Of a stretch of 45,044 nucleotides of DNA, positions 8,946-40,478 are shown one piece after another; position 1 is the first letter of the stretch; every line of letters starts with the position of its first letter. The position numbers were made by a program, and so were the translations under genes. A model generated the notes under the pieces. That model was not told where the DNA came from. It was given only the letters and a program-made list of their open reading frames with translations, and did not search any database. The stretch spans positions 1 through 45,044 of the forward strand of contig CAZTIC010000002.1 of the NCBI GenBank assembly GCA_964613625.1, in the 5' to 3' direction. The DNA comes from an uncultured Gammaproteobacteria bacterium (GTDB lineage: Bacteria; Patescibacteriota; Patescibacteriia; Patescibacteriales; CAZTIC01).

Positions 8946-8960
8946 AATTTTTTATATAAA

Positions 8961-8990: not shown

Positions 8991-9007
8991 TATTTTTATT
9001 TAAATTT

Positions 9008-10554: not shown

Positions 10555-10586
10555 AATAAGTTAGTTTTTAATTATTTTTTTCATCT

Positions 10587-11369: not shown

Positions 11370-11432
11370 ATTATTAAAATAAATTACTTAGTTTAAATTT
11401 TTTTGTTTAGTTTGCCACTATTTATTATTATT

Positions 11433-12856: not shown

Positions 12857-12990
12857 AACATTTTTTTAAAGGCGATGATTATATTTATAATTTTATTTTA
12901 TTGGTGGTATTTAATCATAGTATATGATAATATTAAATCATATTAACTTTTGTGTTTATTAGTTTTTTATTTTTAATTTAGCTTAATATA

Positions 12991-14052: not shown

Positions 14053-14061
14053 TAATAAATT

Positions 14062-16123: not shown

Positions 16124-16139
16124 ATAGGTATTACTAGAT

Positions 16140-16970: not shown

Positions 16971-18139
16971 AGTTTTATAATATTATCAATAAAGTTCGCG
17001 TAGGATTCGCTAAATTTTTTTTTCGTATGATATTGGTTTACATACTTCCAAGAATCGTGAGCTGTATTATATAAGGTTGCTGGGTTTGTTTCAGATACTT
17101 TTTGTGCTAATGAAATAATTGACTCAACTGATGGATTTTCAATTATAATAGATGGGGAATTTTTAGATAAACCGGCCTCTCTTGTTATAATAGGAATAAT
17201 TCCCGCATGCATTGCCTGAATTACCGCACCAGAAGTTCCCTCGGAGGCTGATGGGTATATAATTGCTACGCATCGATTCATAATTTTAATAAAAGGTTGT
17301 CCTTCTATCGTCATTGAGCCATTTTTTGATATTTTAGGTCGTGGATAGTGGTGGATATTAGGCAGGTTGAGCTCTTTTTTATATTCTTTCGAAAATTCTT
17401 TTTCAAAAGGTGCTGGTCCGATTATATATAAGTTTAAGTTTGGCAATCTAGAAAAGGCTTCTACTACTAAATCAAGTCCTTTAAGAATTGCGCCACCACC
17501 ACCAAACCATAAAAAGTTCTTTCTAGCTAATTTAAAATTTTTATTTTTAGGAAAATCATATTTACATACAACTGAAATTGGAATAGGAAAGATGGGTTTG
17601 TTAGAAATTTTGTATGAGCAATGTATGGTTCGGTTGCCAAAACCTTCTATAAAATCAGCATAAGTTGTGTTTTCGGAGAGAGTATTTGTTCTTTGGGTTT
17701 TTAAAATAACGCCTCTTCTATTTTTTAGATCATTAAGTCGTTTCCGCTCAGCGTTATTTTGAAATTTTGAGTTAGCTGAAACAATATGTATAATTTTTAC
17801 ACATTCTTTTGGTAAGAACTTAGATAAGCGTTCAAGGTTGTTTTGTATATCTAAACAGAGTTTATATTTTTTTTTCGGTAGAAAAGTTTTATTATTCCAG
17901 TTTATTATATCTACATTATAGCCACGTTTCGAAAAAAGGTGAACAATTTCAGAGCATTCCCAATAACTTGAGTGAGGGTCTGTAAAATATTCGCTTGGAG
18001 CAAGAGTGAAGGGGCCTGTTAAATATGAAATAAGAATAGACCCCCTTTTTTTACCTCTACAAGGCGCATGAACAACCCCCCAAAGCTTGTTGGTTATTTT
18101 GTTTCTATATGCCCAATAGATTAAAGAAAATTTACGCAT
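16967..18139 (-). CDS. Glycosyltransferase, GT4-like (GT-B fold)
   Basis: FLWFGGGGAILKGLDLVVEAF ... IIYPSASEGTSGAVIQAMHAGIIPIITREAG. Overlaps both neighbours (8 nt and 4 nt). Confidence 0.65.
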   Translation of the reverse strand: MRKFSLIYWAYRNKITNKLWGVVHAPCRGKKRGSILISYLTGPFTLAPSEYFTDPHSSYWECSEIVHLFSKRGYNVDIINWNNKTFLPKKKYKLCLDIQNNLERLSKFLPKECVKIIHIVSANSKFQNNAERKRLNDLKNRRGVILKTQRTNTLSENTTYADFIEGFGNRTIHCSYKISNKPIFPIPISVVCKYDFPKNKNFKLARKNFLWFGGGGAILKGLDLVVEAFSRLPNLNLYIIGPAPFEKEFSKEYKKELNLPNIHHYPRPKISKNGSMTIEGQPFIKIMNRCVAIIYPSASEGTSGAVIQAMHAGIIPIITREAGLSKNSPSIIIENPSVESIISLAQKVSETNPATLYNTAHDSWKYVNQYHTKKKFSESYANFIDNIIKL

Positions 18140-19922
18140 GATATTTTTTGTTATTTTTTAACCAAAGTTCTAAACATAAAAGTATCCATATTTCCATACC
18201 ATACTTTTTATCACATTTTTGATAAAATTTATTAATTATTTTTTGAATGTGTTTTTTATTTAGAAAAGAAAAAATAAAAGCCTCTGAAACAATAAAGGAA
18301 TTATGTATTAGATTTTTCATTTCATTTTTTTCTAGCCAGTCATTTATTGGTGGTCCAAATCCTTGCTTGCCTCTGTGCACGAATTCTTTCGGCATTATTT
18401 CTTCTAAAATGTCTTTTAGTATAATCTTGCCTTTTTTCTTGTTTGTTTTATATTCGGTAGGTATATTATAAACATATTCAACTAATTCTTTATCAAGAAA
18501 AGGTGCTCGTGTTTCAACGGAAGTCATCATTGAAGCTCTATCTATTTTAGAAAGTAAATCTCCAGGGAGATACATATTTAAATCGTAAATATTAATTTTA
18601 TCTAGATCAGAAAGTTTTTTACTATCATCATAATCAGTGGTAATTTTTGAATCAGCAATTTTTTTGTTTTTCCAAAGCCGTTTTCGTTCTTTTTTGTTTA
18701 TATATGTAATTTTTTTTAAATAATCACGGAATTGCTTAGGAAATAAATTAAAATTTTTTATTTTATGTTTCCACCCTATATTCCAATGACTCCAATACCA
18801 TCCATAGCCTAAGAATAATTCGTCTGCTCCATCCCCGCTAAGAAGAACTTTAGTGTTTTTGTCATGAGCTAACTTTGATATTAAATAAGTCGGGATTATA
18901 GCGGCGTCGGCATTTGGTTCGTCTAAATATTCGTAAACCTTTTTTAGCTCCTCAGCAATATTTACATTCATAATTAGCTCGTTGTGGTCAGATTTAATTT
19001 TATTAGCGGCTTTTTTCGCGAACGGTAGTTCATTTATAAAGTTTTCAAATCCTACTGAAAAAGTTTTTAAAGGTTTGTTTGTATGTTTCTGTGCCAGGTA
19101 TGAAACCAAGGTTGAGTCTACACCTCCGCTCAACATTGAACCGACTTCTACATCTGATACCATTCTTTTTTGAACCGATTTTTTTATTAGACTTTTTATT
19201 TTTTCTTTTGCGTCATCGTATTTGATATTAATTTCTTTTTTTCCCAATTTCCAATAGTTATAAGTAGTAATATTATCTATATTTTTGTAATCAACAATAC
19301 AATAATGAGCTGGTTTTAATGTATGAATGTTTTTGTAAATTGTTTTATATGGAGGAATAAAATTTAATTGCATAAAATTATCTATAGCCTCAAAATCAAT
19401 CACACCCTTAATAGTTCCAAGAGAAAATAAAGCCTTTATTTCTGAAGCAAAAATAAAATTATTATTTTCGTCAATTGCATAAAAAAAAGGTTTTTTTCCA
19501 AATCTATCACGGGCTAGAAAAAGTTGTTGTTTTGTATTATTCCAAATAGCAAAAGCAAACATTCCTTCAAAATATTCTAGACATTTAACGCCGTATTCGT
19601 TGTATGCTTTTAGAATTACTTCTGTATCAGAATTTGTTGAGAATATATGACCTTTATTTTTAAGCTTTTTTTTTAATTCTCGATAATTATAAATTTCTCC
19701 ATTATAGGTAATAGCTATATTTTTTTGATTATCTTGCATTGGTTGATGTCCACTCTTTAGGTCAATAATCGAAAGTCTTGTTTGCCCCAGTATACAATTA
19801 GGAAACCCTAAAATACCTTTATCATCCGGACCCCTTTTTGATAAAGTAGATAGCATTAATTCGATTTTTTCATTAGAGTAGTTTTTAAGGTTGCTACCCA
19901 TGATACCTAAAATTCCGCACAT
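18132..19922 (-). CDS. asnB: Asparagine synthase (glutamine-hydrolysing) family amidotransferase
   Basis: 596 aa. N-terminal MCGILG nucleophile, SGGVDSTLV PP-loop, LLSGDGADELFLGYGWY. Confidence 0.85.
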   Translation of the reverse strand: MCGILGIMGSNLKNYSNEKIELMLSTLSKRGPDDKGILGFPNCILGQTRLSIIDLKSGHQPMQDNQKNIAITYNGEIYNYRELKKKLKNKGHIFSTNSDTEVILKAYNEYGVKCLEYFEGMFAFAIWNNTKQQLFLARDRFGKKPFFYAIDENNNFIFASEIKALFSLGTIKGVIDFEAIDNFMQLNFIPPYKTIYKNIHTLKPAHYCIVDYKNIDNITTYNYWKLGKKEINIKYDDAKEKIKSLIKKSVQKRMVSDVEVGSMLSGGVDSTLVSYLAQKHTNKPLKTFSVGFENFINELPFAKKAANKIKSDHNELIMNVNIAEELKKVYEYLDEPNADAAIIPTYLISKLAHDKNTKVLLSGDGADELFLGYGWYWSHWNIGWKHKIKNFNLFPKQFRDYLKKITYINKKERKRLWKNKKIADSKITTDYDDSKKLSDLDKINIYDLNMYLPGDLLSKIDRASMMTSVETRAPFLDKELVEYVYNIPTEYKTNKKKGKIILKDILEEIMPKEFVHRGKQGFGPPINDWLEKNEMKNLIHNSFIVSEAFIFSFLNKKHIQKIINKFYQKCDKKYGMEIWILLCLELWLKNNKKYHA

Positions 19923-19930: not shown

Positions 19931-20797
19931 TTATATTTTTATCCATGAATCTGGAATTAAATCGATAGTGTTCATTTTTTTTACTTCAAACCATTTTTTT
20001 GGAGCAATTATTATTTTTTTCGGATTATCATTGAGCCATGCCCCCCACCAGCTAAACGAACTATTAGCTATTATATTATGTTTACATTTGCTCATAAGGA
20101 TTAATTCTTCGTAATTTTGTAGTTTTCCGCCACTTACAAAAAAATTAGTAGACTTAGTATTTAGATTTTTTTTGACCCACTCTATGTCATCTGAAAAGAT
20201 AAAGAAAGTTGGATTATCAAGTTTTTTCTTAACTATTTGGATCGCTTTATTGTAATAATCTAACGAACATATTCCATGATGCTTGAGCGTTTCTTTGTTT
20301 TTTACATAATCTCCACGACGGATATGTAGCGAGATTGAATTTTTTGATTTTATTTGCGTTACTTTATTTTTATATTTATTACTTGGGTTTTTTATTGTGA
20401 AATCTTTTTTTATAATATCTTTTATGTCGATAAAATATTTTTCACTTTGCCAAAAGCCATCAAGGTAAACATTATTTTTTGCATTAAAGATATTAGGGAT
20501 AAAGTTGAATTGATGTTCTAAGATATATTTAGATTCGTCAGCAAATAGAGCATTATAAAATTTTCTAATTATTTTTTTATTTGATTTTTTATATTTTTTA
20601 AAATAATTAATTTCTTTTTTTGTTGCAAAGTTTTCCTTTATATTAAAATTGCATAATCCATATTCATGTAATTTATAGTCTAAAAAACCAATTTTGTCTA
20701 ACTTGAATTTCGTATTATTTTTATGAGCAATGTATCGTCCCATGGCATATTGGAACATTTGATTACCAAGTCCTTCAATTAATTTTACAATAATCAT
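19931..20797 (-). CDS. GT11 alpha-1,2-fucosyltransferase-family glycosyltransferase
   Basis: GLGNQMFQYA, SLHIRRGDYV, IFSDD and IIANSSFSWWGAWLN motifs. Confidence 0.8.
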   Translation of the reverse strand: MIIVKLIEGLGNQMFQYAMGRYIAHKNNTKFKLDKIGFLDYKLHEYGLCNFNIKENFATKKEINYFKKYKKSNKKIIRKFYNALFADESKYILEHQFNFIPNIFNAKNNVYLDGFWQSEKYFIDIKDIIKKDFTIKNPSNKYKNKVTQIKSKNSISLHIRRGDYVKNKETLKHHGICSLDYYNKAIQIVKKKLDNPTFFIFSDDIEWVKKNLNTKSTNFFVSGGKLQNYEELILMSKCKHNIIANSSFSWWGAWLNDNPKKIIIAPKKWFEVKKMNTIDLIPDSWIKI

Positions 20798-20800
20798 ATT

Positions 20801-21976
20801 TTATTTTTTGTATAAACAATTAATTATAGTTTTTAAATCATTTTTAGAAAGTTCCGGATAGTTTCCGCAATAAAATCCGTTATTATGTATAAAGTTTGTT
20901 CCAGGAAGATTAAGTTTGTTTCTCACATATTTTTTATAAAAAGGTTGTTCTTGGATATTTCCAGCAATCATAGGTCTTATTTCAATATTCGCATCCAAAA
21001 ATCGAGCCATATATTTTTTTCTTAACAGAGGTGTTTTGCAAATTATGGGCATAGCAAACGGAGATATTCTAAGTAAATGATTATGATCTATTAAAATAAG
21101 ATCATCGTTTTCTTTTATAATCTTCTCTGCTATTAAAAAGTTTTCTTCTCTCTTTTTTATATTTTTATCTAATAATTTTAATTGTGATAATCCGAGAAAC
21201 CCTGTAATTTCTGTGGGGCGCATATTAAAACCTAAATCATAGAATGTATATTTTGCGTTAAATTCAGAAGATATTTTATAATTTTTTCGCCAATATTTTT
21301 GTCTGTGTTTTGGAAGGTTTCTATCCCATCCGTTTGCTCTTGTGATACGAAGCATTTCTGCAAATTTATAATCATCAGTGCAAACCATTCCTCCTTCTAT
21401 TGTTGACATATGATGAGCTACAAAAAAAGAAAAGCTTCCACCAATGCCAAAATTACCAGAATTACCACTTGGTAATTTTGTTCCTAGAGATTCACAGTTA
21501 TCTTCAATTAAAATTATATTATTTTTATGACATATTTTTTTAATTTTTTGAAGATCGCCAGTGAATCCTAAAGCATTAGTTATAAAGAAGGCGTCTATTT
21601 TTACTTTTGATAATACGTCTAATAAATTTGTAGACATTACATTTAAAGTATTAATATTACAATCTATTGCTATTGGCTTCATTCCTAATTGAATAATAGG
21701 CATTACGTTAGTCGACCATGTAAGAGAGGAAAATCCTATAGAATCACCATTTTTTATTTTTCCTAAATTTTTTAATGCTTGGAGCATTGCTAAATTTGCA
21801 CTTCCTCCACTATTAAAAAGAATTGCTTCTTTGCAATTTTGTTTTTTTGCAAAAGCATTTTCAAAATCTTCGCACTTTTTCCCCATGCTTAATTTATCAC
21901 TTTTTAAAATAAAATTTGCTAAAGCTTTTTTTGTTGCTCGTTCGTTAAGAAAAGCGTGTTTCATTAATGGAATCAT
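20801..21976 (-). CDS. colD: DegT-fold PLP/PMP enzyme of the His-for-Lys type: GDP-4-keto-6-deoxy-D-mannose 3-dehydratase (ColD-like)
   Basis: LIEDNCESLGT, GSFSFFVAHHMSTIEGGMVCTDD (His where aminotransferases carry the Schiff-base Lys), ITRANGWDRNLP, GFNMRPTEITG, IEIRPMIAGN. 391 aa. Compared with ColD from memory. Confidence 0.65.
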   Translation of the reverse strand: MIPLMKHAFLNERATKKALANFILKSDKLSMGKKCEDFENAFAKKQNCKEAILFNSGGSANLAMLQALKNLGKIKNGDSIGFSSLTWSTNVMPIIQLGMKPIAIDCNINTLNVMSTNLLDVLSKVKIDAFFITNALGFTGDLQKIKKICHKNNIILIEDNCESLGTKLPSGNSGNFGIGGSFSFFVAHHMSTIEGGMVCTDDYKFAEMLRITRANGWDRNLPKHRQKYWRKNYKISSEFNAKYTFYDLGFNMRPTEITGFLGLSQLKLLDKNIKKREENFLIAEKIIKENDDLILIDHNHLLRISPFAMPIICKTPLLRKKYMARFLDANIEIRPMIAGNIQEQPFYKKYVRNKLNLPGTNFIHNNGFYCGNYPELSKNDLKTIINCLYKK

Positions 21977-22003
21977 TTTATTTTTGTATATTATTGTATT
22001 AAT

Positions 22004-22942
22004 TTATTTTTTTAATAATTTTTTAATAAATTTTTTATAATTTCTTTCTTTTAGATAAATAAAAAATGATCTGGGCAGTCTAATTAAAAGCAAAAATATT
22101 GCTAATGGGCGATAAGGGGTTTCTTGCAAGGCCTCTATGTGTCCTTGCAAATATTGTTTAAATCGACCGAAAGGGAATATATGATTTTTTGGGTTTTTAA
22201 TTATAATTTTTTTTGCTTTATCAGGTGTATCGTTTTTATTTAATTCAGGACTTGAAAATCCACCAAGTCGTTTTTTAAATAGAATGTTTTTATCAATAAA
22301 TATTTCAAAGTGACTAACGATAGCGAGGCTAAAATGGTAATCAGATCCCCATACCATTCTTTGCGGATAAATTTCCCATACTTTTTTTATAGCTTTAGTT
22401 TTGAATACACTATACATCAAATTGCATTTTCCTAATATTTCAGGTTGGAGAATATATTTTATAATTTGTTTCATGCTTGGTTTTCCGGAAAGTTTAGCCA
22501 TCTCATTTAACTCTCTTAAATTTCTTCCGTAGGAATCTACGTCCGCTACAACAGTGGTAGCAATATCAATTTTTTTATCTTCTATATTTTTAACACATGT
22601 TTTAACGAAGTCTTTTTCCCAGAGGTCATCTTGCGAGGCCCACATGAAATAAGGCAAATTGGCCTTATTTAAAACAAATTCAAAATTTGGAAACATGCCA
22701 ATATTTTTTTCTTGTTTGTAATAAATAATTCGTGAATCTTTGTCAGCGTATTCTCTGCAAATTATAGAGGAGTTGTCAGTGGAGTTGTCATCTGAAATAT
22801 ATAATTCCCAATTTGTATATGATTGATTTATTAAAGAATTAACTGCCTCTTCAAGAAAGCGTTCTCCATTGTACACTGTCATTCCTATAAATACTTCATT
22901 TGTCATAAATTTTTGTTTTTTTAGAGAAGAATATTTTCCCAT
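22004..22942 (-). CDS. Glycosyltransferase family 2
   Basis: IGMTVYNGERFLEEAVNSLINQSYTNWELYISDDNSTDNS ... ASQDD. The start may instead be the ATG at 22906 (MTNEV...), which removes the 22-nt overlap with wzt. Confidence 0.8.
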   Translation of the reverse strand: MGKYSSLKKQKFMTNEVFIGMTVYNGERFLEEAVNSLINQSYTNWELYISDDNSTDNSSIICREYADKDSRIIYYKQEKNIGMFPNFEFVLNKANLPYFMWASQDDLWEKDFVKTCVKNIEDKKIDIATTVVADVDSYGRNLRELNEMAKLSGKPSMKQIIKYILQPEILGKCNLMYSVFKTKAIKKVWEIYPQRMVWGSDYHFSLAIVSHFEIFIDKNILFKKRLGGFSSPELNKNDTPDKAKKIIIKNPKNHIFPFGRFKQYLQGHIEALQETPYRPLAIFLLLIRLPRSFFIYLKERNYKKFIKKLLKK

Positions 22943-24192
22943 TCTAAACGAGGACGTACTACTCCTGGGATTTTTTGGTTGAAGTCGTTTTTTCTGGAGT
23001 TCATAATATTATCAATAACATTAAATACGACAGCTTCTTGTTGTGAGAAGTGAATTTTAAGCGGCTTCATAGTTGATACAACAACTTGTGCTGTATAAGT
23101 GCCTTCGTTTAATAAATTTTCTGGAATCCACATAGTAGCGCGGTGTTTTCCTTTCACTCCTAATTTTTTATTATATTCTTCATGATTCATAAAAGCACGT
23201 TCACCTGTTGACGTGAAAATATGTATGTTTGGGATAGGAGTATATTCATTTTTTAATATTTCATATGTAAAATCTATTCCTATTTTTTTGTCTGCAGTAG
23301 TGAAAGGTATCTTATTATAATTTTCATCTATAATTCTAGCAGAATGAAGGATGGCGACATCATCTCCGGGAGCTTCTTCTTTTTTCCACTTTGTTTCTGT
23401 TCCTCGAGATCCTATTTCGGCAATATAGCGGTTTATTACTTTTTCTGTTTCATCAAACATAACAACCTTACCTTTTTCAAGAAGAATTGTTTTTTTACAA
23501 AGTCTCTGAATTGCCGCCATGTTGTGGCTTACAAAAAGAATTGTTCTACCTTCGGTTTTTGAGGTAGCATCTAATTTACCAAGAGATTTTTTTTGAAATT
23601 CTGCATCTCCTACAGCCAAAACTTCATCTACGACTAGAATATCTGGTTCCATGTGAGCCGCTACAGCAAAGGCTAGTCGAACATACATCCCAGATGAATA
23701 TCTTTTTACTGGAGTGTCTAAAAATTTTTCTATTCCAGAGAATTCTACGATATCATCAAAACGTTCAACTATTTCTTTTTTTGTCATTCCTAGAATTGCG
23801 CCATTAAGAAAAATATTTTCTCGACCCGAAAGCTCTGGGTGAAAACCGGTGCCAACTTCGAGTAATGAGGCAACACGACCATTTAATTTTATTTCTCCAG
23901 TCGTTGGGGGAGTGATTCTAGAAAGAATTTTTAGAAGAGTAGATTTTCCAGCACCATTTGATCCTATAATACCAATTATTTCACCTTTTTTAATCGTTAA
24001 GTTTACGTCTTTAAGTGCCCAGAATTCTTCTTTTTCTATTCTGCCTAATGCTTTTTTTGCTTTGTGCTTAGCATGTTTGAAAGGATTTTTTAATATATTT
24101 GTTATTACATCTCTTAGCGAAACATAACCACCACGTTGATGCGTGATGTTATATTTTTTTCCTACATTTTTTATTTCAATTGCGTTTTTCAT
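22921..24192 (-). CDS. wzt: Polysaccharide ABC exporter ATP-binding protein with C-terminal extension (Wzt/TagH type)
   Basis: Walker A GSNGAGKST, signature YSSGMYVRLAF, Walker B ILVVDE, plus about 170 extra C-terminal residues (beta-rich; Wzt C-terminal carbohydrate-binding-domain position). Confidence 0.85.
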   Translation of the reverse strand: MKNAIEIKNVGKKYNITHQRGGYVSLRDVITNILKNPFKHAKHKAKKALGRIEKEEFWALKDVNLTIKKGEIIGIIGSNGAGKSTLLKILSRITPPTTGEIKLNGRVASLLEVGTGFHPELSGRENIFLNGAILGMTKKEIVERFDDIVEFSGIEKFLDTPVKRYSSGMYVRLAFAVAAHMEPDILVVDEVLAVGDAEFQKKSLGKLDATSKTEGRTILFVSHNMAAIQRLCKKTILLEKGKVVMFDETEKVINRYIAEIGSRGTETKWKKEEAPGDDVAILHSARIIDENYNKIPFTTADKKIGIDFTYEILKNEYTPIPNIHIFTSTGERAFMNHEEYNKKLGVKGKHRATMWIPENLLNEGTYTAQVVVSTMKPLKIHFSQQEAVVFNVIDNIMNSRKNDFNQKIPGVVRPRLEWENILL

Positions 24193-24204
24193 ATATAAAA
24201 TTAT

Positions 24205-25023
24205 TTAAACGATATCAGCGAAATGTCGCTCTGTTTTTTTAAAAAATACTACACCTATTACAAGTAATATTAAAACAGCTATTAGGGAAATTCCGAGTAG
24301 CTCCCAGTTTATAGGGGCATTGCCAAAAAGAGCAGCCCGAGATGCTTTTATTACTCCTGTCATCGGATTCATGGCTAGTATCCAGGAGTATTTTCCTGCA
24401 ATACTTGCCGGGTATATTACAGGGGTTACAAAAAGCATCATCTGGATAAAATAAGGAAGAATATAACGAACATCTCGGTATTTAACGTTTACAGATGCTA
24501 AAAATAATCCACCGCCAACAGCTGCAATAAATGTTATTAAAAGTAATAATGGTAAAATTAAAATAATTATTAAATTAGGAACGAAATTATAATAAAACAT
24601 TAATCCTACAAGAATCAGTGAAGCGATACCAAAATCAACAAATTTAGTAACTATTCCTGAAATTGGCAAGATAAGTCTTGGGAAATATACTTTTGTTATT
24701 ATGCCAGCATTTCCAACCAATGAATTACTTGTTTCGGTAAGTGCGGTTGAGAAAAATTGCCAAAATAAAAGACCAGAGTAAACGAAGATTGGATAGGGAA
24801 TTCCGTCGGAAGGCATTTTTGCCAAGCCTCCAAAGAAAACACTAAAAACTACCATAGCCATGAAGGGTTGAAAAATTGCCCAAGCAACACCAACAAATGT
24901 TTGTTTGTATCTAACTTTGATATCTCTCCAAGCAAAAAAATATGCTAGTTCACGATATTGCCAGACTTCTTTGAAATCATTCCAGCTGAAAGTTTTTTTA
25001 GGTTTTATTACTATTGTTTTCAT
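24205..25023 (-). CDS. wzm: ABC-2 type polysaccharide exporter permease (Wzm/TagG type)
   Basis: 272 aa, about 6 TM segments. N-terminal YRELAYFFAWRDIKVRYKQTFVGVAWAIFQP is typical of ABC-2 permeases. Confidence 0.85.
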   Translation of the reverse strand: MKTIVIKPKKTFSWNDFKEVWQYRELAYFFAWRDIKVRYKQTFVGVAWAIFQPFMAMVVFSVFFGGLAKMPSDGIPYPIFVYSGLLFWQFFSTALTETSNSLVGNAGIITKVYFPRLILPISGIVTKFVDFGIASLILVGLMFYYNFVPNLIIILILPLLLLITFIAAVGGGLFLASVNVKYRDVRYILPYFIQMMLFVTPVIYPASIAGKYSWILAMNPMTGVIKASRAALFGNAPINWELLGISLIAVLILLVIGVVFFKKTERHFADIV

Positions 25024-25036
25024 ATTGTTTGTATAG

Positions 25037-25094
25037 TCTGTAAAGTTCTTAAAGTTACTTTATGACTTTATAGACTTTTGACTTTCTGACTTTA
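25037..25094. repeat. GACTTTA-family motif cluster forming an imperfect palindrome (site A)
   Basis: Left half TCTGTAAAGTTCTTAAAGTT. Right half GACTTTA ta GACTTTT GACTTTC t GACTTTA (25064-25094). The last unit overlaps the fcl stop codon. Confidence 0.65.
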
Positions 25095-26018
25095 TAAACT
25101 ATTCTTATACCATTTATAAGTATTTTTAATTCCGGTTTCTAAATCAATTTTATATTTCCAGCCAACTGTATGTATTTTATCAACATTTAATAATTTTCTA
25201 GGTGTGCCATTTGGTTTTGATGTATCCCATTTAATTTCACCTTTAAATTTAGTTTCTTTTTTAATAATTTCAGCTAATTTTTTAATAGTTATATCAATTC
25301 CAGTGCCGATATTTATTATTTCTGATTCGTTGTAATTTTTCATCAAAAATATACAGGCGTCAGCTAGATCATTAACATGAAGGAATTCTCGCTTGGGTTT
25401 CCCAGTACCCCAACACATTACTTCGCTATCGTTATTTATCTTAGCATCATGAAATTTTCTAATTAAAGCTGGCAGGGCATGAGACGATTTTAAATCAAAA
25501 TTATCATTTGGTCCATATAGGTTAGTCGGCATTACTGAAATAAAATTTGTTCCGTATTGCTTGTTGTATGATTCGCACATTGTCAAGCCTGCAATTTTGG
25601 CGATAGCATAGGATTTGTTAGTCGGCTCCAGTGGACCAGTTAATAAGTATTCTTCTTTTATGGGTTGGGGGGCATTTTTTGGATAAATACATGAACTGCC
25701 CAGAAATAATAATTTTTTTATATTATTTAAATAAGCATTATGAATAACGTTATTTTGTATTTGTAGATTTTCGTATATGTAATTAGCTGGATAATTTACG
25801 TTATCTATAATGCCTCCGACTTTTGCAGCAGCTAAAAAAATAAATTCTGGCGATTCATTTTTAAAAAATTTTGTCACAGCATTAAAGTCTAATAAATCGA
25901 GCTCAGCTCTTGTTCTGGTTATTATATTGGTGTAGCCAAGTTGTTTTAATGATCTTAGTATGGCGGAGCCAGCCATTCCTCGATGTCCGGCTATGAAAAT
26001 TTTTGAATTTTTTTGCAT
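25092..26018 (-). CDS. fcl: GDP-L-fucose synthase family (Fcl/WcaG; could be the GDP-colitose synthase ColC paralogue)
   Basis: IFIAGHRGMAGSA Rossmann motif, YAIAKIAG (YxxxK), NLYGPNDNF, CWGTGKPKREFLHVNDLA. The track ORF extends to 26084, but the ATG at 26018 (MQKNSKIFIAGH) avoids a 47-nt overlap. Confidence 0.8.
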   Translation of the reverse strand: MQKNSKIFIAGHRGMAGSAILRSLKQLGYTNIITRTRAELDLLDFNAVTKFFKNESPEFIFLAAAKVGGIIDNVNYPANYIYENLQIQNNVIHNAYLNNIKKLLFLGSSCIYPKNAPQPIKEEYLLTGPLEPTNKSYAIAKIAGLTMCESYNKQYGTNFISVMPTNLYGPNDNFDLKSSHALPALIRKFHDAKINNDSEVMCWGTGKPKREFLHVNDLADACIFLMKNYNESEIINIGTGIDITIKKLAEIIKKETKFKGEIKWDTSKPNGTPRKLLNVDKIHTVGWKYKIDLETGIKNTYKWYKNSL

Positions 26019-26037
26019 ATTGTTTTGTGATAATAAT

Positions 26038-26853
26038 TTATTGTTTATTGTTTTTGATTTTTTTACTCCAAAAAGAATCTCCAATTTCGGCTAATATTGA
26101 AGAATATTGATTTAATCTTTTTTGTTTAAGTTCTCTGTTGTTTTCTTCATAAAGTTTTTCACTTTCATCGTAGTCAAAGGAGACGGGGACTGAGGATATT
26201 TTTTTATTGTCAGAGTAGGCGTTAATTACCGGCTTAATAATTGAATCCCATTTGTCGAGATCACTTTTGTAGTTAAGGAAATATTGTGCGCCTGCTTTAT
26301 TGAACATTTTAGGGCCAAACCATAAATCATATATTTTATCTAGCTTATCAGAGGCTTTTTTGTTGGCTCTTGATTCTATCCATGATTGAAATTTTGGCAT
26401 TGAGTTTTTGTTTTTTCTTTCTGGTACAACTATGTCTGCATTTCCTTTTCTTAGGATATTTATCATGTCAGATATATTATTCTCGCAAAGTAGACTCCAT
26501 TTTTCTGGTTCTGCCCATAGGTAATTTGTTGGAGTATTATTTTGGGAAATTTTAATAGCTTCGTTGAGTGCGTGCCTGCGGCTTTCTCCCATGCTTAAAT
26601 CAGTTTTTTGTACTAGTTTAATATTTTCATACTCTTCTAGTTTATTTAAAAAAGAAGAATTTGATCCGCCGTCTATTACTACTGTCTTTATTTCAAGTTT
26701 ATCGGCATTTTCAAAAAATTTTAATGCAAGTTTTTCTCTTATTTTTGAAGTATCATCCTCTTTGTAGAAAGTTGTTGTGAAGATAATCAAATCATCAAAT
26801 TTTTCTTTTTTTTCTTGTTGTTCAATGCGTTTTTGAATCTCGAAATTTTCCAT
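26038..26853 (-). CDS. Hypothetical protein, possibly GT-A-like nucleotide-sugar enzyme
   Basis: 271 aa between gmd and fcl. IIFTTTFYKEDD ... KTVVIDGGSNSSF ... WAEPEK ... ADIVVPER looks Rossmann-like/GT-A-like, but I recognise no family. Confidence 0.4.
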   Translation of the reverse strand: MENFEIQKRIEQQEKKEKFDDLIIFTTTFYKEDDTSKIREKLALKFFENADKLEIKTVVIDGGSNSSFLNKLEEYENIKLVQKTDLSMGESRRHALNEAIKISQNNTPTNYLWAEPEKWSLLCENNISDMINILRKGNADIVVPERKNKNSMPKFQSWIESRANKKASDKLDKIYDLWFGPKMFNKAGAQYFLNYKSDLDKWDSIIKPVINAYSDNKKISSVPVSFDYDESEKLYEENNRELKQKRLNQYSSILAEIGDSFWSKKIKNNKQ

Positions 26854-26919
26854 ATTGTTAAATTAAAATTTTTACTCATCTAAAGCTTGCTTTGTTGAGG
26901 GTGTAGTTATTTCGGTTAG

Positions 26920-27978
26920 TTAATAGCCGTTATTTTTTAAATGCATTTCTTTTTCTGCTTCTTTCATGTCGCTTTCTATCATTTCTTTAACTAGTTCTTC
27001 AAAGGATATTTTGGTTTCCCAGCCGAGCTTTTCTTTTGCTTTTTTTGGATCACCTAGCAGGGAGTCAACTTCTGTTGGGCGGAAGTATTCTGGGTTTATT
27101 TCGATTATAGTTTCTTCTGTATCTTTGTTTATTCCTTTTTCATTAACTCCTTTTCCTTGCCATTCTATTGTGACGTCAATTTCTTTGAAGGCTACTTCAC
27201 AGAATTCTCTAACAGAGTATTGTTTTCCAGATGCTATTACAAAGTCTTGTGGCCTATCTTGTTGCATCATAAGATACATTGCCTCAACGTAGTCACGAGC
27301 ATGACCCCAGTCTCGTTTTGCATCTAGATTGCCGAGTTGGATTTTATCTTGAAGTCCAAGCTTGATTCTGCAAACTGCCCTAGTTACTTTTCTAGTAACA
27401 AAGGTTTCACCGCGACGAGGTGATTCATGATTAAAAAGAATTCCACTTACCGCAAATATATTATATGCTTCACGGTAGTTAATTGTAATCCAGTGAGAGT
27501 AAAGCTTGGCTACTCCATATGGGCTTCTAGGGTAGAATGGAGTATTTTCGTTTTGTGGTGGGGTAGAGGCACCAAACATTTCACTAGTTGAAGCTTGGTA
27601 AAAGCGTGTTTTCTTTTCGAGTCCTAGTATACGAATGGCTTCTAGAATTCGCAAGGCTCCAATAGCATCTGAGTTGGCAGTATATTCTGGAGTTTCAAAG
27701 GAAACTTTTACATGACTTTGTGCACCAAGATTGTATACCTCGTCTGGTTGAATTTTTTTTAGTAAGCCAACAATATTGGTTGAATCAGTTAAGTCTCCAT
27801 AATGTAAAATAAAGTTTCTGTTATTAATTTGCGGATCTTGATAAATGTGGTCGATACGAGCGGTATTAAAAGAAGAAGATCTTCTTTTTAATCCATGAAC
27901 TTCGTAGCCTTTTTTGAGTAATAATTCAGCCAGATATGAGCCATCTTGCCCGGTGATTCCTGTTATTAAAGCTTTCAT
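26920..27978 (-). CDS. gmd: GDP-mannose 4,6-dehydratase
   Basis: [70 protein letters not shown]. Confidence 0.92.
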
Positions 27979-28026: not shown

Positions 28027-28371
28027 TTATAGAGTTTTTATGAAACCTGATATTAGTTTTGATATTTCAATGGATAAATTATTGAAATTTTTATAATTTT
28101 CATTATTTGTGTAATTTAGGGCTTGTGCTAAATACAGCATTGATCTTACTTCTCCGCATGAGCCTTTGGCAATAAAAAGAAAATATTTAAATTCTTTATC
28201 GCTTTTTCGCTCAAATCCTTCTGCAATATTATTCATTATTGACACAGACGCCCTTTGAATTTGATCTTTGAATCCAAAATCTTTACATCTATAAAATTCT
28301 TTATAAATATCTATTGTCATTGTTTTGGCTTTTTGCCAGGCGATAATATCTTCAAATTTTTCAATTTTCAT
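28027..28371 (-). CDS. Four-helix-bundle protein (23S rRNA intervening-sequence protein / Avd family)
   Basis: 114 aa. WQKAKTMTIDIYKEF ... QIQRASVSIMNNIAEGFERKSDKEFKYFLFIAKGSCGEVRSMLYLA is the family signature. Confidence 0.8.
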   Translation of the reverse strand: MKIEKFEDIIAWQKAKTMTIDIYKEFYRCKDFGFKDQIQRASVSIMNNIAEGFERKSDKEFKYFLFIAKGSCGEVRSMLYLAQALNYTNNENYKNFNNLSIEISKLISGFIKTL

Positions 28372-28382: not shown

Positions 28383-28501
28383 AACTTTAGACTTTATGGA
28401 CTTTAGACTTTAAGGACTTTATAGACTTTATAGACTTTATAGACTTTAGACTTTATAGACTTTAGACTTTATAGACTTTATAGACTTTATAGACTTTAGA
28501 C
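28383..28501 (+). repeat. Tandem heptamer array: 13 perfect GACTTTA units with 0- or 2-nt spacers
   Basis: Units start at 28390, 28399, 28406, 28415, 28424, 28433, 28442, 28449, 28458, 28465, 28474, 28483 and 28492. Spacers are tg, none, ag, ta, ta, ta, none, ta, none, ta, ta, ta. A degenerate AACTTTA precedes and a partial GAC follows. A higher-order 34-nt (9+9+9+7) block occurs twice. Confidence 0.95.
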
Positions 28502-28507
28502 TAATGC

Positions 28508-28765
28508 CTACCATTTGTTTATTTTATTAATAACCTTCTTTTTTATATTAAGATATGATTTAGTGGCTTCTTTTTCTACTTTAGGTGAAACTAATCGAAG
28601 TAGTTCTTTACCGAGAATACGATATTGACCACCTACTTTATTAGCCTTAATTAAGCCTTTTTTAAGCAGGCGCTTGATGGTGCTATTAGAAATCTTTAGA
28701 ATTTCTTGTGCTTCGTGGGTAGTATATATGGCATTTTGCTTTATTTCTTCATTTGTATTTTTCAT
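28508..28765 (-). CDS. Helix-turn-helix DNA-binding protein, excisionase/MerR-like family
   Basis: 85 aa. IYTTHEAQEILKISNSTIKRLLKKGLIKANKVGGQYRILGKELLRL. Confidence 0.7.
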   Translation of the reverse strand: MKNTNEEIKQNAIYTTHEAQEILKISNSTIKRLLKKGLIKANKVGGQYRILGKELLRLVSPKVEKEATKSYLNIKKKVINKINKW

Positions 28766-28772
28766 ATTATGA

Positions 28773-28800
28773 ATTATAACAAAGTGTCAAAAAGTGTCAA
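28773..28800 (-). promoter_or_regulatory. Consensus sigma-70-type promoter abutting the HTH start codon (leaderless layout)
   Basis: The minus strand reads TTGACA-cttt-TTGACA-cttt-gt-TATAAT-tcataat-ATG. Distal -35 at 28795-28800, 16-nt spacer, -10 at 28773-28778, 7 nt to ATG (28765). The plus strand shows AAAGTGTCAA twice in tandem (28781-28800). Confidence 0.55.
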
Positions 28801-28875: not shown

Positions 28876-30231
28876 TTAAATTCCTCCCTTAGATAAAATA
28901 GTAGCTATAGTTTTTAGTATAATAGACAGGTCAAGATAAATTGATCTGTTTTTTATATAAAAGAGATCGTATTGTATTTTTTTCATAGTGTCTTCGTAGT
29001 TTGGAGAGTGATACTCGCCAGATATTTGGTCCCAGCCGGTGATACCAGGCTTTACTAATGTCCTCTCATTAAAGAATGGTATTTGTTTTTCTAGGGTTTC
29101 GGCGAGCTCAGGTCGTTCTGGTCTTGGTCCTACAAAACTCATTTCACCTTTTAGTATATTTATCATTTGAGTAAATTCATCAATTCTAGTTTTTCTCATA
29201 AAATTACCAACCTTGGTGGTGCGAGAATCATTATGCTCTGCTGGGTCAGGATTATTCTTGATAGTTTTTTGTGTACGAAATTTAATTAATCTAAAAATTT
29301 TTCCATTCTTGCCAACTCTTTTTTGAATGAAAAATATTGATTCTTTATTTTCAATTTTTAAAGCTAGCCCAATTATAATCCAAAATGGTAGAGTTATTAT
29401 AAATATCGCCAGAGCTAAAATAAAATCGTATGTTTTTTTTAGATAATCAAAAAACTTTTTATTGCCTTCGTTAAGGTTTTCTAGAAACCACATTTTGTTT
29501 ATTACGTTCACCGGTATTTTGCCTGTGATGTCTTCGTAGAATTTTGACAAGCCAACAAAGCTTGTTCCAAGTGAAAGACAATCGAACAGAATTGAACGAA
29601 GATTATTTGATTCACTAGGATCTTGAGCTAGAACTACGGTATTGATATTTTTTTTAGATATTAAATTTTTTAGATCATTTATATTGTCATAAATTGGCAA
29701 GCTAGAAATATTTTTATTTTCTTCATTTATCACAAAAGAGACAAAGTAGCCTAAGTGGGGCTTGTCTTTTAAAAATGTTATGAGCTCTTCTACTTGTTTA
29801 TTGTGTCCAATAAATGCAATATTTATTTTTGGAGCGTGCGTTTTGATCAAGTAGTTAAATAAATTTCTCCAGATAGAAAATAAAACAGCAAAGACAACGA
29901 TGAAGATAATTAAGTTTCTTTTCGGTGCGATATTTAGACTTGGGTTTAAATAGAAGTAAGCGGCTGAGAGAAGTCCAGAGATAATTAGAGTCTTAGTGAG
30001 CTTCTGATAAAAGCGAGAATTATTAACAGCGATGTTAATATTGTATAGATTGGTAATATAAAAAATGATCAACCAAAAAATAAAAATAAAAGAAAATGGA
30101 CCAAAATGGTTACTCCACAATCCTTCAGATGGGATACCTTGATATCTAATTAAAAGGGTTAAATATAAAGAGGTGTATAAAATCAAAATATCTCCAATAA
30201 GTAAAATAAATTTTTTAATTTTTATATTCAT
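28876..30231 (-). CDS. Polyprenyl-phosphate sugar-1-phosphate transferase (WbaP/EPS initiating 'bacterial sugar transferase')
   Basis: 451 aa with N-terminal TM block. C-terminal domain has FRLIKFRT, GEMSFVGPRPERPE, KPGITGWDQ. Confidence 0.85.
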   Translation of the reverse strand: MNIKIKKFILLIGDILILYTSLYLTLLIRYQGIPSEGLWSNHFGPFSFIFIFWLIIFYITNLYNINIAVNNSRFYQKLTKTLIISGLLSAAYFYLNPSLNIAPKRNLIIFIVVFAVLFSIWRNLFNYLIKTHAPKINIAFIGHNKQVEELITFLKDKPHLGYFVSFVINEENKNISSLPIYDNINDLKNLISKKNINTVVLAQDPSESNNLRSILFDCLSLGTSFVGLSKFYEDITGKIPVNVINKMWFLENLNEGNKKFFDYLKKTYDFILALAIFIITLPFWIIIGLALKIENKESIFFIQKRVGKNGKIFRLIKFRTQKTIKNNPDPAEHNDSRTTKVGNFMRKTRIDEFTQMINILKGEMSFVGPRPERPELAETLEKQIPFFNERTLVKPGITGWDQISGEYHSPNYEDTMKKIQYDLFYIKNRSIYLDLSIILKTIATILSKGGI

Positions 30232-40466: not shown

Positions 40467-40478
40467 AATAATAATCCA

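Follow-up and report, generated by a model that had tools for sequence, protein, structure and literature searches.

A glycan-assembly array in a Patescibacteria genome on balance probably makes and attaches the sugar colitose, by means of Gmd, a ColD-like dehydratase, an Fcl serving two roles, a GT11 transferase and export through Wzm/Wzt. Judged from its genes, the candidate route would be the known colitose pathway in divergent form. The array lies in a 45-kb stretch of DNA, called the window here, and the host genome appears to be of the Parcubacteria type. The named relatives of the ribosome recycling factor encoded in the window are all Patescibacteria/Parcubacteria. Every ORF named in an earlier note on this DNA was recovered on the minus strand with its coordinates unchanged (Table 1), and the gmd assignment made there is borne out.

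Table 1. Features of the window, with the evidence for each assignment
Feature	Coordinates	Strand	Evidence or remark
Sigma-70-like promoter consensus TTGACA-16-TG-TATAAT	28773..28800	-	12/12; gap upstream of the IVP-gmd...GT11 array
Priming polyprenyl-phosphate glycosyl-1-phosphate transferase (Bac_transf)	28876..30231	-	TIGR03025 343 bits (cutoff 296); PF02397 198 bits
gmd	26920..27978	-	TIGR01472 594 bits (cutoff 415); 68% nucleotide identity to E. coli gmd
Divergent GT2-like glycosyltransferase; small family, mostly CPR and Nanoarchaeota	26038..26853	-	Homologue annotation
Canonical-type Fcl (GDP-4-keto-6-deoxymannose 3,5-epimerase/4-reductase)	25092..26018	-	NF047922 483 bits (cutoff 500); 378 bits to E. 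coli Fcl 1bsv
Wzm, ABC-2 permease of glycan exporter	24205..25023	-	PF01061 51.5 bits
Wzt, ABC ATPase with weak C-terminal Wzt_C carbohydrate-binding domain	22921..24192	-	PF00005 87 bits; PF14524 24.9 bits (below gathering score 30.4)
GT2 glycosyltransferase	22004..22942	-	PF00535 90.6 bits
Predicted ColD-like, His-type, Fe-S-free NDP-4-keto-6-deoxyhexose 3-dehydratase, 391 aa	20801..21976	-	PF01041 DegT_DnrJ_EryC1 196 bits
GT11 transferase, candidate alpha-1,2 colitosyl/fucosyl transferase	19931..20797	-	PF01531 134 bits
AsnB-type glutamine amidotransferase, in array	18132..19922	-	TIGR01536 523 bits
GT4 glycosyltransferase, array continues	16967..18139	-	Stop/start codons overlap with next gene
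GT2 glycosyltransferase, array continues	16140..16970	-	Start overlaps stop of GT4 16967..18139
Remote GT11-like protein	9008..9949	-	PF01531 34 bits over 124 residues
RmlB	40987..41958	Opposite to array	TIGR01181 484 bits (cutoff 365)

The array runs from the priming transferase through gmd, the GT2-like gene, fcl, wzm, wzt, a GT2 gene, the dehydratase gene, the GT11 gene and the AsnB-like amidotransferase gene to the GT4 gene and a further GT2 gene. All are co-directional, and consecutive genes overlap or lie no more than 68 bp apart. The promoter-like site is a pattern match only, the total number of such sites not being above that in shuffled sequences. The GT2-like protein has no Pfam match of its own; many of its 95 homologues carry PF00535, some are named glycosyltransferase, and in loci L006/L012 they adjoin gmd. 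Wzm is 69-71% identical to the Wzm of four CPR loci (L015, L041, L056 and L075). No ManB/ManC for GDP-mannose supply is encoded in the 45-kb window.

The sequence supports ORF 20801..21976 as a predicted His-type (PMP-dependent) sugar 3-dehydratase rather than an aminotransferase. It has the motifs FSFFVAHHMSTIEGG at residues 181-195, ITRANGWDRNLP at 211-222 and LIEDNCESLG at 156-165. E. coli ColD carries FSSFYSHHIATMEGG and RAHGWTRNLP, as the earlier note stated, and these line up with the window protein column for column. H188 corresponds to His188 of ColD, which is mutated in PDB chains 2r0t (H188K) and 3b8x (H188N), and the same column holds the Lys in 11 Lys-bearing DegT paralogues. The DegT fold with His at the PLP-Lys position, as first described from the letters of the DNA, is thus confirmed. 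H188 and H189 are invariant in 207 of 207 family members, so that neither chance nor faulty sequencing accounts for the His. A sugar aminotransferase such as GDP-perosamine synthase is hardly credible here. The DegT Pfam domain is present, homologues bear the NCBI name 'DegT/DnrJ/EryC1/StrS aminotransferase family protein', and GDP-perosamine synthase shares the substrate GDP-4-keto-6-deoxymannose. However, the sequence contradicts this reading, since the Schiff-base Lys is replaced in every one of those 207 homologues. Further evidence comes from a tree of 137 sequences (60 bootstraps), in which Lys-bearing DegT paralogues from the same loci are the outgroup to the His clade in 60/60 bootstraps; the clustering with Lys-containing aminotransferases named earlier as a refutation is not seen. 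His for Lys is also a recognised hallmark of 3-dehydratases (PMC8987622).

The same hallmark is found in E1 of Yersinia and Salmonella, which carries out PMP-dependent 3-deoxygenation of an NDP-4-keto-6-deoxyhexose on a DegT fold (PMC8987622). The E1/E3 (DdhC/AscC/RfbH) pathway to CDP-3,6-dideoxyhexoses thus has the same chemistry as that predicted for the window dehydratase, and E1 lies at a similar sequence distance from the latter (137 bits) and from ColD (182 bits). What sets E1 (437 aa) apart is its [2Fe-2S] cysteine loop and N-terminal extension, its need for the E3 reductase and its substrate derived from CDP-glucose. That the ORF itself encodes an E1/DdhC/RfbH-type CDP-hexose 3-dehydrase is as hard to credit as an aminotransferase. 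Its best NCBIfam model is RfbH and the IMG annotation is 'CDP-6-deoxy-D-xylo-4-hexulose-3-dehydrase', but its 218 bits fall far short of the model's cutoff (423), and E. coli ColD obtains 263 bits there. Where E1 has its cysteine loop RDCYCAPGCDNTC, the ORF reads GWDRNLPKH, which corresponds to GWTRNLPK in ColD, and the family has R, L, Q and W at the loop cysteine positions; the E1-type Fe-S motif is absent. True E1-like paralogues, which have 3-4 cysteines in the loop, separate as a clade of their own (60/60 bootstraps), and neither an E3-like reductase nor CDP-glucose genes were found in the window. An E1-type enzyme is therefore already contradicted, unless the dehydratase family's own conserved cysteines bind a cluster.

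Sequence and predicted fold both support ColD as the closest characterised relative. The dehydratase scores 193 bits against ColD, 137 against E1 and at most 86 against aminotransferases. Its AlphaFold model (pLDDT 88) has ColD chains as its top 12 Foldseek matches in the PDB (TM 0.85), with E1 (TM 0.82) and aminotransferases ranking below. The family shows no variation at D159, E162, S183, R219, N251, R253 and R334; the comparison with ColD numbering covers all but R253, the other six being Asp159, Glu162, Ser183, Arg219, Asn248 and Arg331 of ColD, which the window enzyme retains along with H188. It differs from ColD at residue 187, which is Ala instead of the Ser187 that is important in ColD, and this Ser is not conserved among the dehydratases. 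The initial identification as ColD thus stands as to the closest characterised relative and fails as to orthology. A ColD orthologue is rejected because identity is 31-33%, ColD is roughly as close to E1 (182 bits) as to the dehydratase (193 bits), and the dehydratase falls among His-type 3-dehydratases that form a well-supported clade apart from both ColD and E1 (60/60 bootstraps). Members of this clade, 62-74% identical, are present in at least 541 species representatives of many phyla. Among cultured organisms, Flavobacterium reichenbachii DSM 21791 and Chryseobacterium balustinum DSM 16775 carry the cassette. We know of no characterised enzyme in it, so nucleotide and sugar specificity have to be read from context, and an enzyme as far from ColD as E1 is does not disclose its nucleotide by homology alone. 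Specificity can drift in ColD-like enzymes, as C. jejuni homologues 62-67% identical to ColD, and hence members of the ColD clade proper, act on a heptose substrate (PMC10440746).

It is consequently conceivable, if improbable, that the dehydratase takes a substrate without GDP, for instance dTDP-4-keto-6-deoxyglucose supplied by the window RmlB, and gives a dTDP-3,6-dideoxyhexose unrelated to Gmd and Fcl. A short RmlC-like cupin is also encoded in the window, and the distance from ColD leaves room for such a substrate. However, RmlB lies 19 kb away on the other strand with housekeeping genes between. Arg219, which contacts the phosphates of GDP in ColD, is shared by ColD and the whole family, and E1 has an Fe-S cysteine in its place. 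Moreover, the immediate partners of the dehydratase, the Fcl family and GT11, are known as GDP-sugar enzymes. Co-occurrence in 82 non-redundant loci related to the dehydratase points the same way: an Fcl-family gene is present somewhere in 73 and Gmd in 31, about three times as many as have RmlB (10). In 60/79 loci an Fcl-family gene immediately precedes the dehydratase gene on the same strand, and in 38/73 a GT11 gene immediately follows it. The first of these arrangements is that of the E. coli O55/O111 colitose pathway; in O55, colC precedes colD with a 4-bp overlap, accompanied by gmd and the GT11 gene wbgN, and the Fcl-family gene of the related loci often overlaps the dehydratase gene by 4 bp, as colC and colD do in L005. 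The synteny thus supports a GDP-colitose-type route. One locus, L008, is without gmd and has a GHMP kinase and a nucleotidyltransferase, which may indicate a heptose-like sugar.

The sole Fcl-family enzyme of the window had been suggested to be ColC, a paralogue of Fcl, and this part of the earlier proposal fails. The enzyme shares 55% identity with E. coli Fcl against 38% with E. coli ColC, and it groups with E. coli Fcl in clade A with 98% bootstrap, ColC branching outside. Its catalytic S107/C109/Y136/K140/H179 are conserved; these Ser/Cys/Tyr/Lys/His residues are identical across Fcl, ColC and the colD-linked clade B. At all positions that separate true Fcl from colD-linked paralogues (P207, T271, L275, W286 and Y300) it is canonical, P207 being Ala in 7/9 of its CPR relatives. 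The earlier note had paired two groupings as counting against colitose; that of the Fcl homologue with true fucose synthases is found, and that of the dehydratase with E1 is not. In the window, wzm, wzt and a GT2 gene separate fcl from the dehydratase gene, and this GT2 gene fills the slot that an Fcl-family gene holds in most related loci.

Who, then, completes the sugar? One unlikely but not negligible answer is that the dehydratase uses GDP-4-keto-6-deoxymannose and another enzyme finishes, either a plain 4-reductase or a ColC-type/clade-B reductase outside the window. The window Fcl would then make GDP-fucose only, and the 3,6-dideoxy sugar could be either colitose or a different one. This is favoured by the fully canonical states of the Fcl and by the situation outside Patescibacteria, where a distinct Fcl paralogue almost always accompanies the dehydratase; these paralogues make up clade B (60 sequences, 85% bootstrap). 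Five loci keep a gmd-linked Fcl-family gene beside a separate colD-linked copy, which suggests that true Fcl does not suffice in general; the gmd-linked gene is a true clade-A Fcl in L032, L044 and L063 and branches outside clades A and B in L070 and L085. As the visible portion of the genome is 45 kb, a dedicated ColC could also lie beyond it. However, in none of 14 Patescibacteria loci do the flanking 10 kb on each side contain a gene of clade B or of ColC type, and in five of them (L006/L012, L013, L015 and L056) a canonical-type Fcl directly adjoins the dehydratase. All nine Patescibacteria Fcl-family genes form one subgroup within the true-Fcl clade (88% and 98% bootstrap). The only other SDR of the cluster (12991..14052) is of a generic epimerase type, with 100 bits to a UDP-GlcA 4-epimerase-like structure and <70 bits to Fcl. 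Since the partner in Patescibacteria is always a canonical-type Fcl, Fcl probably performs the final steps to both fucose and colitose, standing in for ColC. A literature search found no published test of Fcl on the 3-deoxy intermediate.

The two GT11-type transferases proposed in the earlier note fare differently. The one that begins 3 bp past the end of the dehydratase gene is firm and is 40% identical to WbgN of E. coli O55, a characterised alpha-1,2-colitosyltransferase (PMC11987014). The protein at 9008..9949 appears to be a remote relative rather than a firm GT11: it retains the HxRxxDY and NSSF motifs, matches WbgN with E=0.008 and is 33% identical to the other GT11 over 112 aa. GT11 enzymes accept both GDP-Col and GDP-Fuc (PMC11987014), in favour of a GDP-sugar route. 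Their ready use of GDP-Fuc (PMC11987014) lends something to a further reading, quite improbable overall, that the cluster makes L-fucose only, the ColD-like gene and GT11 having arrived as a cassette by horizontal transfer, with a dehydratase that is inactive or otherwise used in this host. Both enzymes of the de novo GDP-L-fucose pathway (Gmd and Fcl/WcaG) are intact in the window and with GT11, classically an alpha-1,2-fucosyltransferase family, make a complete fucosylation set; the cassette, 62-74% identical across phyla, seems mobile. However, fucose synthesis requires no 3-dehydratase, and across dozens of genomes GT11 is physically coupled to the dehydratase rather than to gmd/fcl. The dehydratase gene is itself intact and packed against GT11 within the array, keeps every family-invariant residue and has a confident predicted structure.

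In the preferred colitose route, Gmd would convert GDP-mannose to GDP-4-keto-6-deoxy-D-mannose, on which the dehydratase would form a PMP ketimine at C4. His188 would abstract the C4' proton and the 3-OH would be expelled, giving GDP-4-keto-3,6-dideoxy-D-mannose, with PMP regenerated from glutamate and no reductase partner. C5 epimerisation and C4 reduction by Fcl would then yield a product with the stereochemistry of GDP-L-colitose, and intermediate escaping dehydration would be turned into GDP-L-fucose by the same Fcl. The adjacent GT11 may add L-colitose (or L-fucose) through an alpha-1,2 linkage to a polyprenyl-linked glycan, which Wzm/Wzt would export.

The set of enzyme families is that of E. 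coli O55/O111 (Gmd, ColD/WbdK, ColC/WbdJ; WbgN): Gmd, a His-type Fe-S-free DegT-fold 3-dehydratase, an Fcl-family epimerase/reductase and a GT11. The colitose gene set put forward at the outset therefore holds as to a His-type dehydratase co-directional with gmd and abutting a WbgN-like GT11, and not as to a ColD orthologue or a ColC. The window differs in the clade of its dehydratase, in its canonical Fcl partner, in an ABC transporter in place of Wzx/Wzy and in its Patescibacteria host. No LPS genes stood out among those identified in the window. ColD-like enzymes serve more than colitose, as shown by C. jejuni HS:5/HS:11, in which a ColD-type, glutamate-regenerated C3-dehydratase acts on a GDP-4-keto-6-deoxy sugar and its product is then epimerised and reduced at C4 (PMC10440746). 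The substrates there are heptoses, and the later steps fall to two enzymes, a cupin epimerase and a separate SDR reductase; the window encodes a genuine Gmd and lacks GDP-heptose genes. If the proposed route is correct, the rare 3,6-dideoxy sugar colitose would be part of the surface glycan of an ultra-small Patescibacteria bacterium.

The window dehydratase, which the earlier note had proposed as the GDP-4-keto-6-deoxymannose 3-dehydratase ColD, has the fold-type-I DegT/AAT architecture of ~390 aa and matches PF01041 with 196 bits. The coordinates and peptides given in the earlier note were all correct on checking the sequence, and its ColD motifs agree with the real E. coli ColD sequence. 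Sequence matches in the PDB were strongest for ColD (193 bits), followed by E1, the Fe-S CDP-hexose 3-dehydrase also called DdhC or RfbH (137 bits), and by aminotransferases (86 bits or less). An AlphaFold model computed from an input of 32 family members reached a pLDDT of 88 and a pTM of 0.87. In a Foldseek search with this model, ColD chains made up the first 12 matches (TM 0.85), then came E1 (TM 0.82), and then aminotransferases.

Is the protein an aminotransferase or an E1 enzyme? These are the names that its homologues carry in public databases. The aminotransferase reading is ruled out by the His/Lys column. H188 of the window dehydratase aligns without gaps with ColD His188, the residue mutated in PDB 2r0t and 3b8x. 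H188 and H189 are invariant (207/207 family members), and the His188 column holds Lys in 11 Lys-type DegT (aminotransferase) paralogues from related loci; a His does occupy the aminotransferase Lys position, as first claimed. The E1 reading is ruled out by the cysteine loop. The E1 loop RDCYCAPGCDNTC aligns to the cysteine-free stretch GWDRNLPKH, which resembles GWTRNLPK of ColD, and the E1 cysteine columns are occupied by R, L, Q, and W across the family. In other words, the Fe-S motif is absent, and since there is no [2Fe-2S] motif, no reductase partner would be needed. RfbH is the best NCBIfam match both for the family and for E. coli ColD, neither of which has a ColD-specific match there; the window dehydratase scores 218 bits against the E1/DdhC/RfbH model NF011936, under the cutoff of 423, and lacks the E1 pattern C-X57-C-X1-C-X7-C. 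Four other cysteines, C35, C149, C313, and C370, are near-invariant in the family (204-207 of 207 members) and distinct from the E1 Fe-S loop; ColD has V, I, K, and V at these positions.

Further residues of ColD are retained. D159, E162, S183, R219, N251, and R334 are invariant; their ColD counterparts are Asp159, Glu162, Ser183, Arg219, Asn248, and Arg331, which we take to be cofactor and GDP contacts. Because the best matches are to ColD, the model is ColD-like, the loop is cysteine-free, and these residues are invariant, the mechanism class predicted from sequence and model is secure: a PMP-dependent, His-catalysed, Fe-S-free 3-dehydratase. This class has been reviewed (PMC8987622).

The identification with ColD itself holds in part. 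ColD is the nearest solved relative and its mechanism appears to be shared; orthology did not stand, because the two proteins are only 31-33% identical and fall into separate clades. In a neighbor-joining tree of 137 sequences with 60 bootstraps, the only type of tree built, all His-type sequences separated from the Lys-type outgroup (60/60). Within them, the tree resolved a ColD clade with an 'SHH' motif (46/60), a group of E1-like sequences with 3-4 loop cysteines (60/60), and a window clade of 31 representatives with a 'G/A-HH' motif (54/60), which was set apart from both ColD and E1 (60/60). ColD matches E1 with 182 bits; together with the low identity between ColD and the window protein, this score indicates that ColD, E1, and the window dehydratase represent three deep lineages. 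A search of 1.84 billion cluster representatives returned 652 clusters at E <=1e-30, and more than 150 clusters among these representatives were at least as near to the window dehydratase as ColD is. In E. coli ColD, Ser187 lies beside the catalytic His and is needed for dehydratase rather than aminotransferase behaviour. Position 187 is Ala in 205 of 207 family members. Ser187 is, however, not conserved among characterised dehydratases (bioRxiv 10.1101/2021.09.04.459008). Judged by low identity, tree separation, and Ala187, the window dehydratase is ColD-like in mechanism and lies outside the ColD orthologous group. The E. coli ColD and ColC references (ColC being GDP-L-colitose synthase) were taken from the O55:H7 CB9615 chromosome. 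The first two E. coli gmd matches inspected were fucose clusters, not colitose clusters, and no match to the dehydratase gene came from a distant blastn search of 5,426 E. coli genomes.

The dehydratase gene lies in an array in which all genes from 30231 down to 15146 are on the minus strand. From gmd to the GT2 gene at 16140, neighboring genes overlap or are separated by at most 68 bp. A perfect sigma-70-type consensus, found by pattern match only, is present upstream of the array at 28800..28773.

Genes of the minus-strand glycan array
Feature	Coordinates	Strand	Remark
Priming polyprenyl-P sugar-phosphate transferase	28876..30231	-	
23S-IVP four-helix-bundle gene	28027..28371	-	
gmd	26920..27978	-	TIGR01472 594 bits, above the equivalog cutoff of 415
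Divergent GT2-like gene	26038..26853	-	
Fcl-family gene	25092..26018	-	
wzm	24205..25023	-	
wzt	22921..24192	-	
GT2	22004..22942	-	
DegT-like ORF (window dehydratase)	20801..21976	-	
GT11	19931..20797	-	
AsnB-like amidotransferase	18132..19922	-	
GT4	16967..18139	-	
GT2	16140..16970	-	

The substrate was approached through gene context. A total of 82 non-redundant related loci, with flanks of up to 10 kb on each side, were surveyed by calling ORFs and comparing them with reference proteins by BLASTP. An Fcl-family gene was located directly upstream of the dehydratase gene and co-directional with it, often with a 4-bp overlap, in 60 of 79 loci, and somewhere in the flanks in 73 of 82. A GT11 gene followed directly downstream in 38 of 73 loci. 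The flanks contained Gmd in 31, Wzt in 34, and RmlB in 10 of the 82 loci. To our knowledge, Fcl-family enzymes and GT11 transferases act on GDP-sugars, which makes GDP-4-keto-6-deoxymannose the best-supported substrate. ColD acts on GDP-4-keto-6-deoxy-D-mannose, and its PMP is regenerated by L-glutamate. The colitose cluster of E. coli O55:H7 follows the same logic, with a 4-bp overlap between colC and colD and with gmd and a GT11 gene present. We regard a GDP-4-keto-6-deoxymannose 3-dehydratase as the probable identity of the window protein. A caveat on the substrate comes from C. jejuni, in which enzymes 62-67% identical to ColD act on a heptose analogue (PMC10440746).

One related locus differs in its surroundings. 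In Sediminibacterium (L008, the same locus as L026), ColD-like, Fcl-like, and GT11 genes occur within 1255..18025, and gmd is absent to a distance of 10 kb. The locus instead encodes a split transketolase, a GHMP kinase, a nucleotidyltransferase, and four more SDRs. By analogy with C. jejuni, this dehydratase may act on another GDP-sugar, possibly a heptose. A different source of substrate in the window could be sought at 40014..41958, outside the main array, where RmlB (dTDP-glucose 4,6-dehydratase, 484 bits) and a 150-aa RmlC-like cupin are encoded with a HinT-like gene between them; neither RmlA nor RmlD was seen in the window. For reasons of distance, strand, and co-occurrence across genomes, this pair was rejected as the source.

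Which enzyme would complete the pathway? The earlier note had suggested that the Fcl homologue is ColC, and the tree argues against this. The window Fcl shares 55% identity with E. coli Fcl and 38% with E. coli ColC; between ColC and Fcl, identity is 39%. Against the Fcl model NF047922 (cutoff 500), E. coli Fcl scores 551 bits, the window Fcl 483 bits, just below the cutoff, a dehydratase-adjacent homologue from a Patescibacteria locus (L006) 475, the homologue from the Sediminibacterium locus 429, and E. coli ColC 304. Neighbor-joining, the only method used, with 100 bootstraps on 81 Fcl-family proteins resolved three groups. The true-Fcl group (clade A, 98%) comprises three E. coli Fcl sequences, second copies from three related loci (L032, L044, and L063), and all nine Patescibacteria sequences including that of the window, which form a subgroup with 88% support. 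The second copies are not dehydratase-adjacent, and only that in L044 is directly beside gmd. A group of dehydratase-linked paralogues (clade B, 85%) comprises 60 sequences, nearly all directly dehydratase-adjacent and all from phyla other than Patescibacteria; the Sediminibacterium homologue belongs here. E. coli ColC pairs with a Parabeggiatoa homologue (100%), and this pair (ColC plus L081) lies outside clades A and B with 93% support. The three groups indicate that at least three different lineages of the Fcl family have served as partners of the dehydratases, the Patescibacteria partner being the canonical one. It is directly dehydratase-adjacent in the related loci L006/L012, L013, L015, and L056.

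The catalytic residues are the same in all of these proteins. S107, C109, Y136, K140, and H179 (E. coli Fcl numbering) are shared by the window Fcl, Fcl, ColC, and clade B; we assume that S107, Y136, and K140 are the SDR triad and that C109 and H179 are the acid-base pair serving epimerisation at C5 and reduction at C4. The task of ColC, C5 epimerisation plus C4 reduction, would be a subset of Fcl chemistry. At discriminating positions the window Fcl is canonical, with P207, T271, L275, W286, and Y300 as in E. coli Fcl. Position 207 (P208 in the window protein) is Pro in 8 of 8 canonical Fcl proteins from outside Patescibacteria, and Ala or Ser in E. coli ColC, its Parabeggiatoa relative, and all 60 clade-B paralogues. 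It is Ala in 7 of 9 Patescibacteria Fcl proteins, and the window Fcl has kept Pro. From the distribution of residues, the change from Pro to Ala or Ser may mark convergent adaptation to a 3-deoxy substrate. The motifs GGIQANI, PCNLYG, and GM.RK, which clade B has in common with E. coli ColC and which the window Fcl lacks, were considered as a ColC signature and rejected, as clade B and ColC are separate lineages in the trees. The SDR encoded at 12991..14052 was likewise rejected as a ColC or 4-reductase, as it is of the generic epimerase kind and shares 25% identity with Fcl. No other credible reductase was found in the window. Colitose made through the window Fcl is the end product that we favor, with somewhat less assurance than the substrate.

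Two GT11-type transferases had also been proposed, and one of them is a clear member of the family. The product of the GT11 gene in the array is a full-length match to PF01531 (134 bits, residues 4-286) and is 40% identical to WbgN. The other, at 9008..9949, is a remote GT11-like protein with a partial PF01531 match of 34 bits. WbgN, a GT11 enzyme of E. coli O55:H7, is a characterised alpha-1,2-colitosyltransferase, and both WbgN and human FUT2 take GDP-Col as well as GDP-Fuc (PMC11987014). No GT11 structure was found in the PDB. In the proposed scheme, a glycan would be assembled on a polyprenyl carrier, receive the sugar from the GT11, and be exported by Wzm/Wzt. Taken as a whole, the gene set most likely supports the synthesis of GDP-L-fucose and of a GDP-3,6-dideoxy-L-hexose, most simply colitose.

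Several other features of the array and its surroundings were observed. A tandem repeat at 28384..28502, directly upstream of the 23S-IVP gene and ~400 bp upstream of gmd, consists of ~13 copies of the 9-bp unit TAGACTTTA (minus strand TAAAGTCTA) plus 7-bp variants, and slippage in it could lead to phase-variable expression. Between the promoter-like site and this repeat, at the head of the array, lies a small unlisted ORF (~28510..28766, minus strand, ~84 aa, beginning MKNTNEEIKQNAIYTTHEAQEILKISNSTIKRLLKKGLIKANKVGGQYRILGKELL) that resembles an excisionase/MerR-type helix-turn-helix protein and is a possible regulator. The ORF between gmd and the Fcl-family gene belongs to a family of 95 proteins, nearly all from Parcubacteria/Patescibacteria and Nanoarchaeota, many of which match GT2 (PF00535) weakly; homologues also adjoin gmd in Saccharibacteria loci (L006/L012). 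It was ruled out as a missing pathway enzyme, being a divergent GT2-like transferase. A divergently transcribed gene pair at 12991..15162 (plus strand) within the glycan cluster encodes a generic SDR epimerase (top PDB match 6zl6, 100 bits) and a member of the RGP/UDP-arabinopyranose-mutase Pfam family (159 bits against the PDB 'transglycosylase' 7yua/7xpr), and may constitute a furanose-forming branch. The segment 36001..37000 is extremely AT-rich (G+C 0.18) and covers the 3' part of a PEP-utilizer-domain gene (35283..36782, minus strand) and part of the following gap; beyond it, the ORF at 37269..38738 (plus strand) encodes 489 aa with no family match. The 45-kb window has a G+C content of ~30%, and tRNA and Rfam scans of it gave no match. 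All named relatives of its ribosome recycling factor belong to Patescibacteria or Parcubacteria. Its Wzm and Fcl have their nearest counterparts in Patescibacteria loci, with whose Wzt its own Wzt shares 54-72% identity.

The dehydratase family is large and widely distributed. More than 6,500 homologues were found, the top 120 of which are 66-84% identical to the window protein and ~391 aa long. At least 541 loci were confirmed among GTDB species representatives, and the best 80 of these encode proteins 62-74% identical to the window dehydratase. These 80 include Patescibacteria (Saccharibacteria, Vogel-, Nomura-, Campbell-, and Magasanikii-bacteria, and Paceibacterota) and many Bacteroidota, among them cultured Flavobacterium, Chryseobacterium, and Mucilaginibacter. 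Beta-, Gamma-, and Deltaproteobacteria, Verrucomicrobiota, Planctomycetota, Elusimicrobia, Omnitrophica, Saganbacteria, one spirochaete, one clostridial MAG, and two archaeal MAGs are also represented. Identity of this degree across phyla indicates horizontal spread of the cassette. In a Methanoregula MAG (L083) and a Ca. Argoarchaeum MAG (L068), the dehydratase is 62-67% identical to bacterial ones and is accompanied by an adjacent Fcl-family gene and Gmd, which suggests transfer between domains or contamination during binning. E1-like paralogues of ~440 aa with 3-4 Fe-S-loop cysteines lie a few kb from the ColD-like gene in four loci (L017 4688..6010, L024 5055..6371, L072 4832..6184, and L068 13113..14453). 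This proximity suggests that in some organisms a single cluster may yield 3,6-dideoxy sugars of both CDP and GDP origin.

The finding is a divergent form of a known pathway, not a new kind of system. A broader reading, which we offer tentatively and at less than even confidence, is that this deep-branching ColD-like clade forms a mobile cassette of an Fcl-family gene, a dehydratase, and a GT11, carried by at least 541 species in about a dozen phyla including Patescibacteria and archaeal MAGs. ColC function would then have been drawn at least three times from the Fcl family, as enterobacterial ColC, as clade B, and as a housekeeping Fcl of Patescibacteria serving as a dual GDP-fucose/GDP-colitose synthase. 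The sugar would reside on a Wzm/Wzt-exported glycan; no LPS genes were seen in the window. The literature found reports colitose chemistry for Proteobacteria only, and the search returned no paper that ties colitose to Patescibacteria, the sole co-mention being an unrelated rumen metabolomics study.

If the mobile-cassette reading is true, 3,6-dideoxy-L-hexoses such as colitose would be far more common than the few known proteobacterial O-antigens suggest. If the pathway prediction holds, ultra-small episymbiotic bacteria and many Bacteroidota would display colitose-type sugars as surface determinants. In these organisms, about whose envelopes hardly anything is known, this would have a bearing on attachment to hosts, phage receptors, and recognition by lectins. 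Thousands of proteins named 'DegT aminotransferase' or 'CDP-...-3-dehydrase, E1' would need renaming as GDP-sugar 3-dehydratases. The Fcl family would also provide a natural experiment in which one 3,5-epimerase/4-reductase scaffold was specialised for a 3-deoxy substrate several times independently, with Pro207 to Ala/Ser as a candidate marker. Because the same cassette occurs in cultured Flavobacterium, Chryseobacterium, and Mucilaginibacter strains, such as F. reichenbachii DSM 21791, F. aquidurense, C. balustinum DSM 16775, and M. corticis, the prediction would be cheap to test. The main interest lies in the breadth of an uncharacterised clade and in the repeated recruitment of Fcl paralogues.
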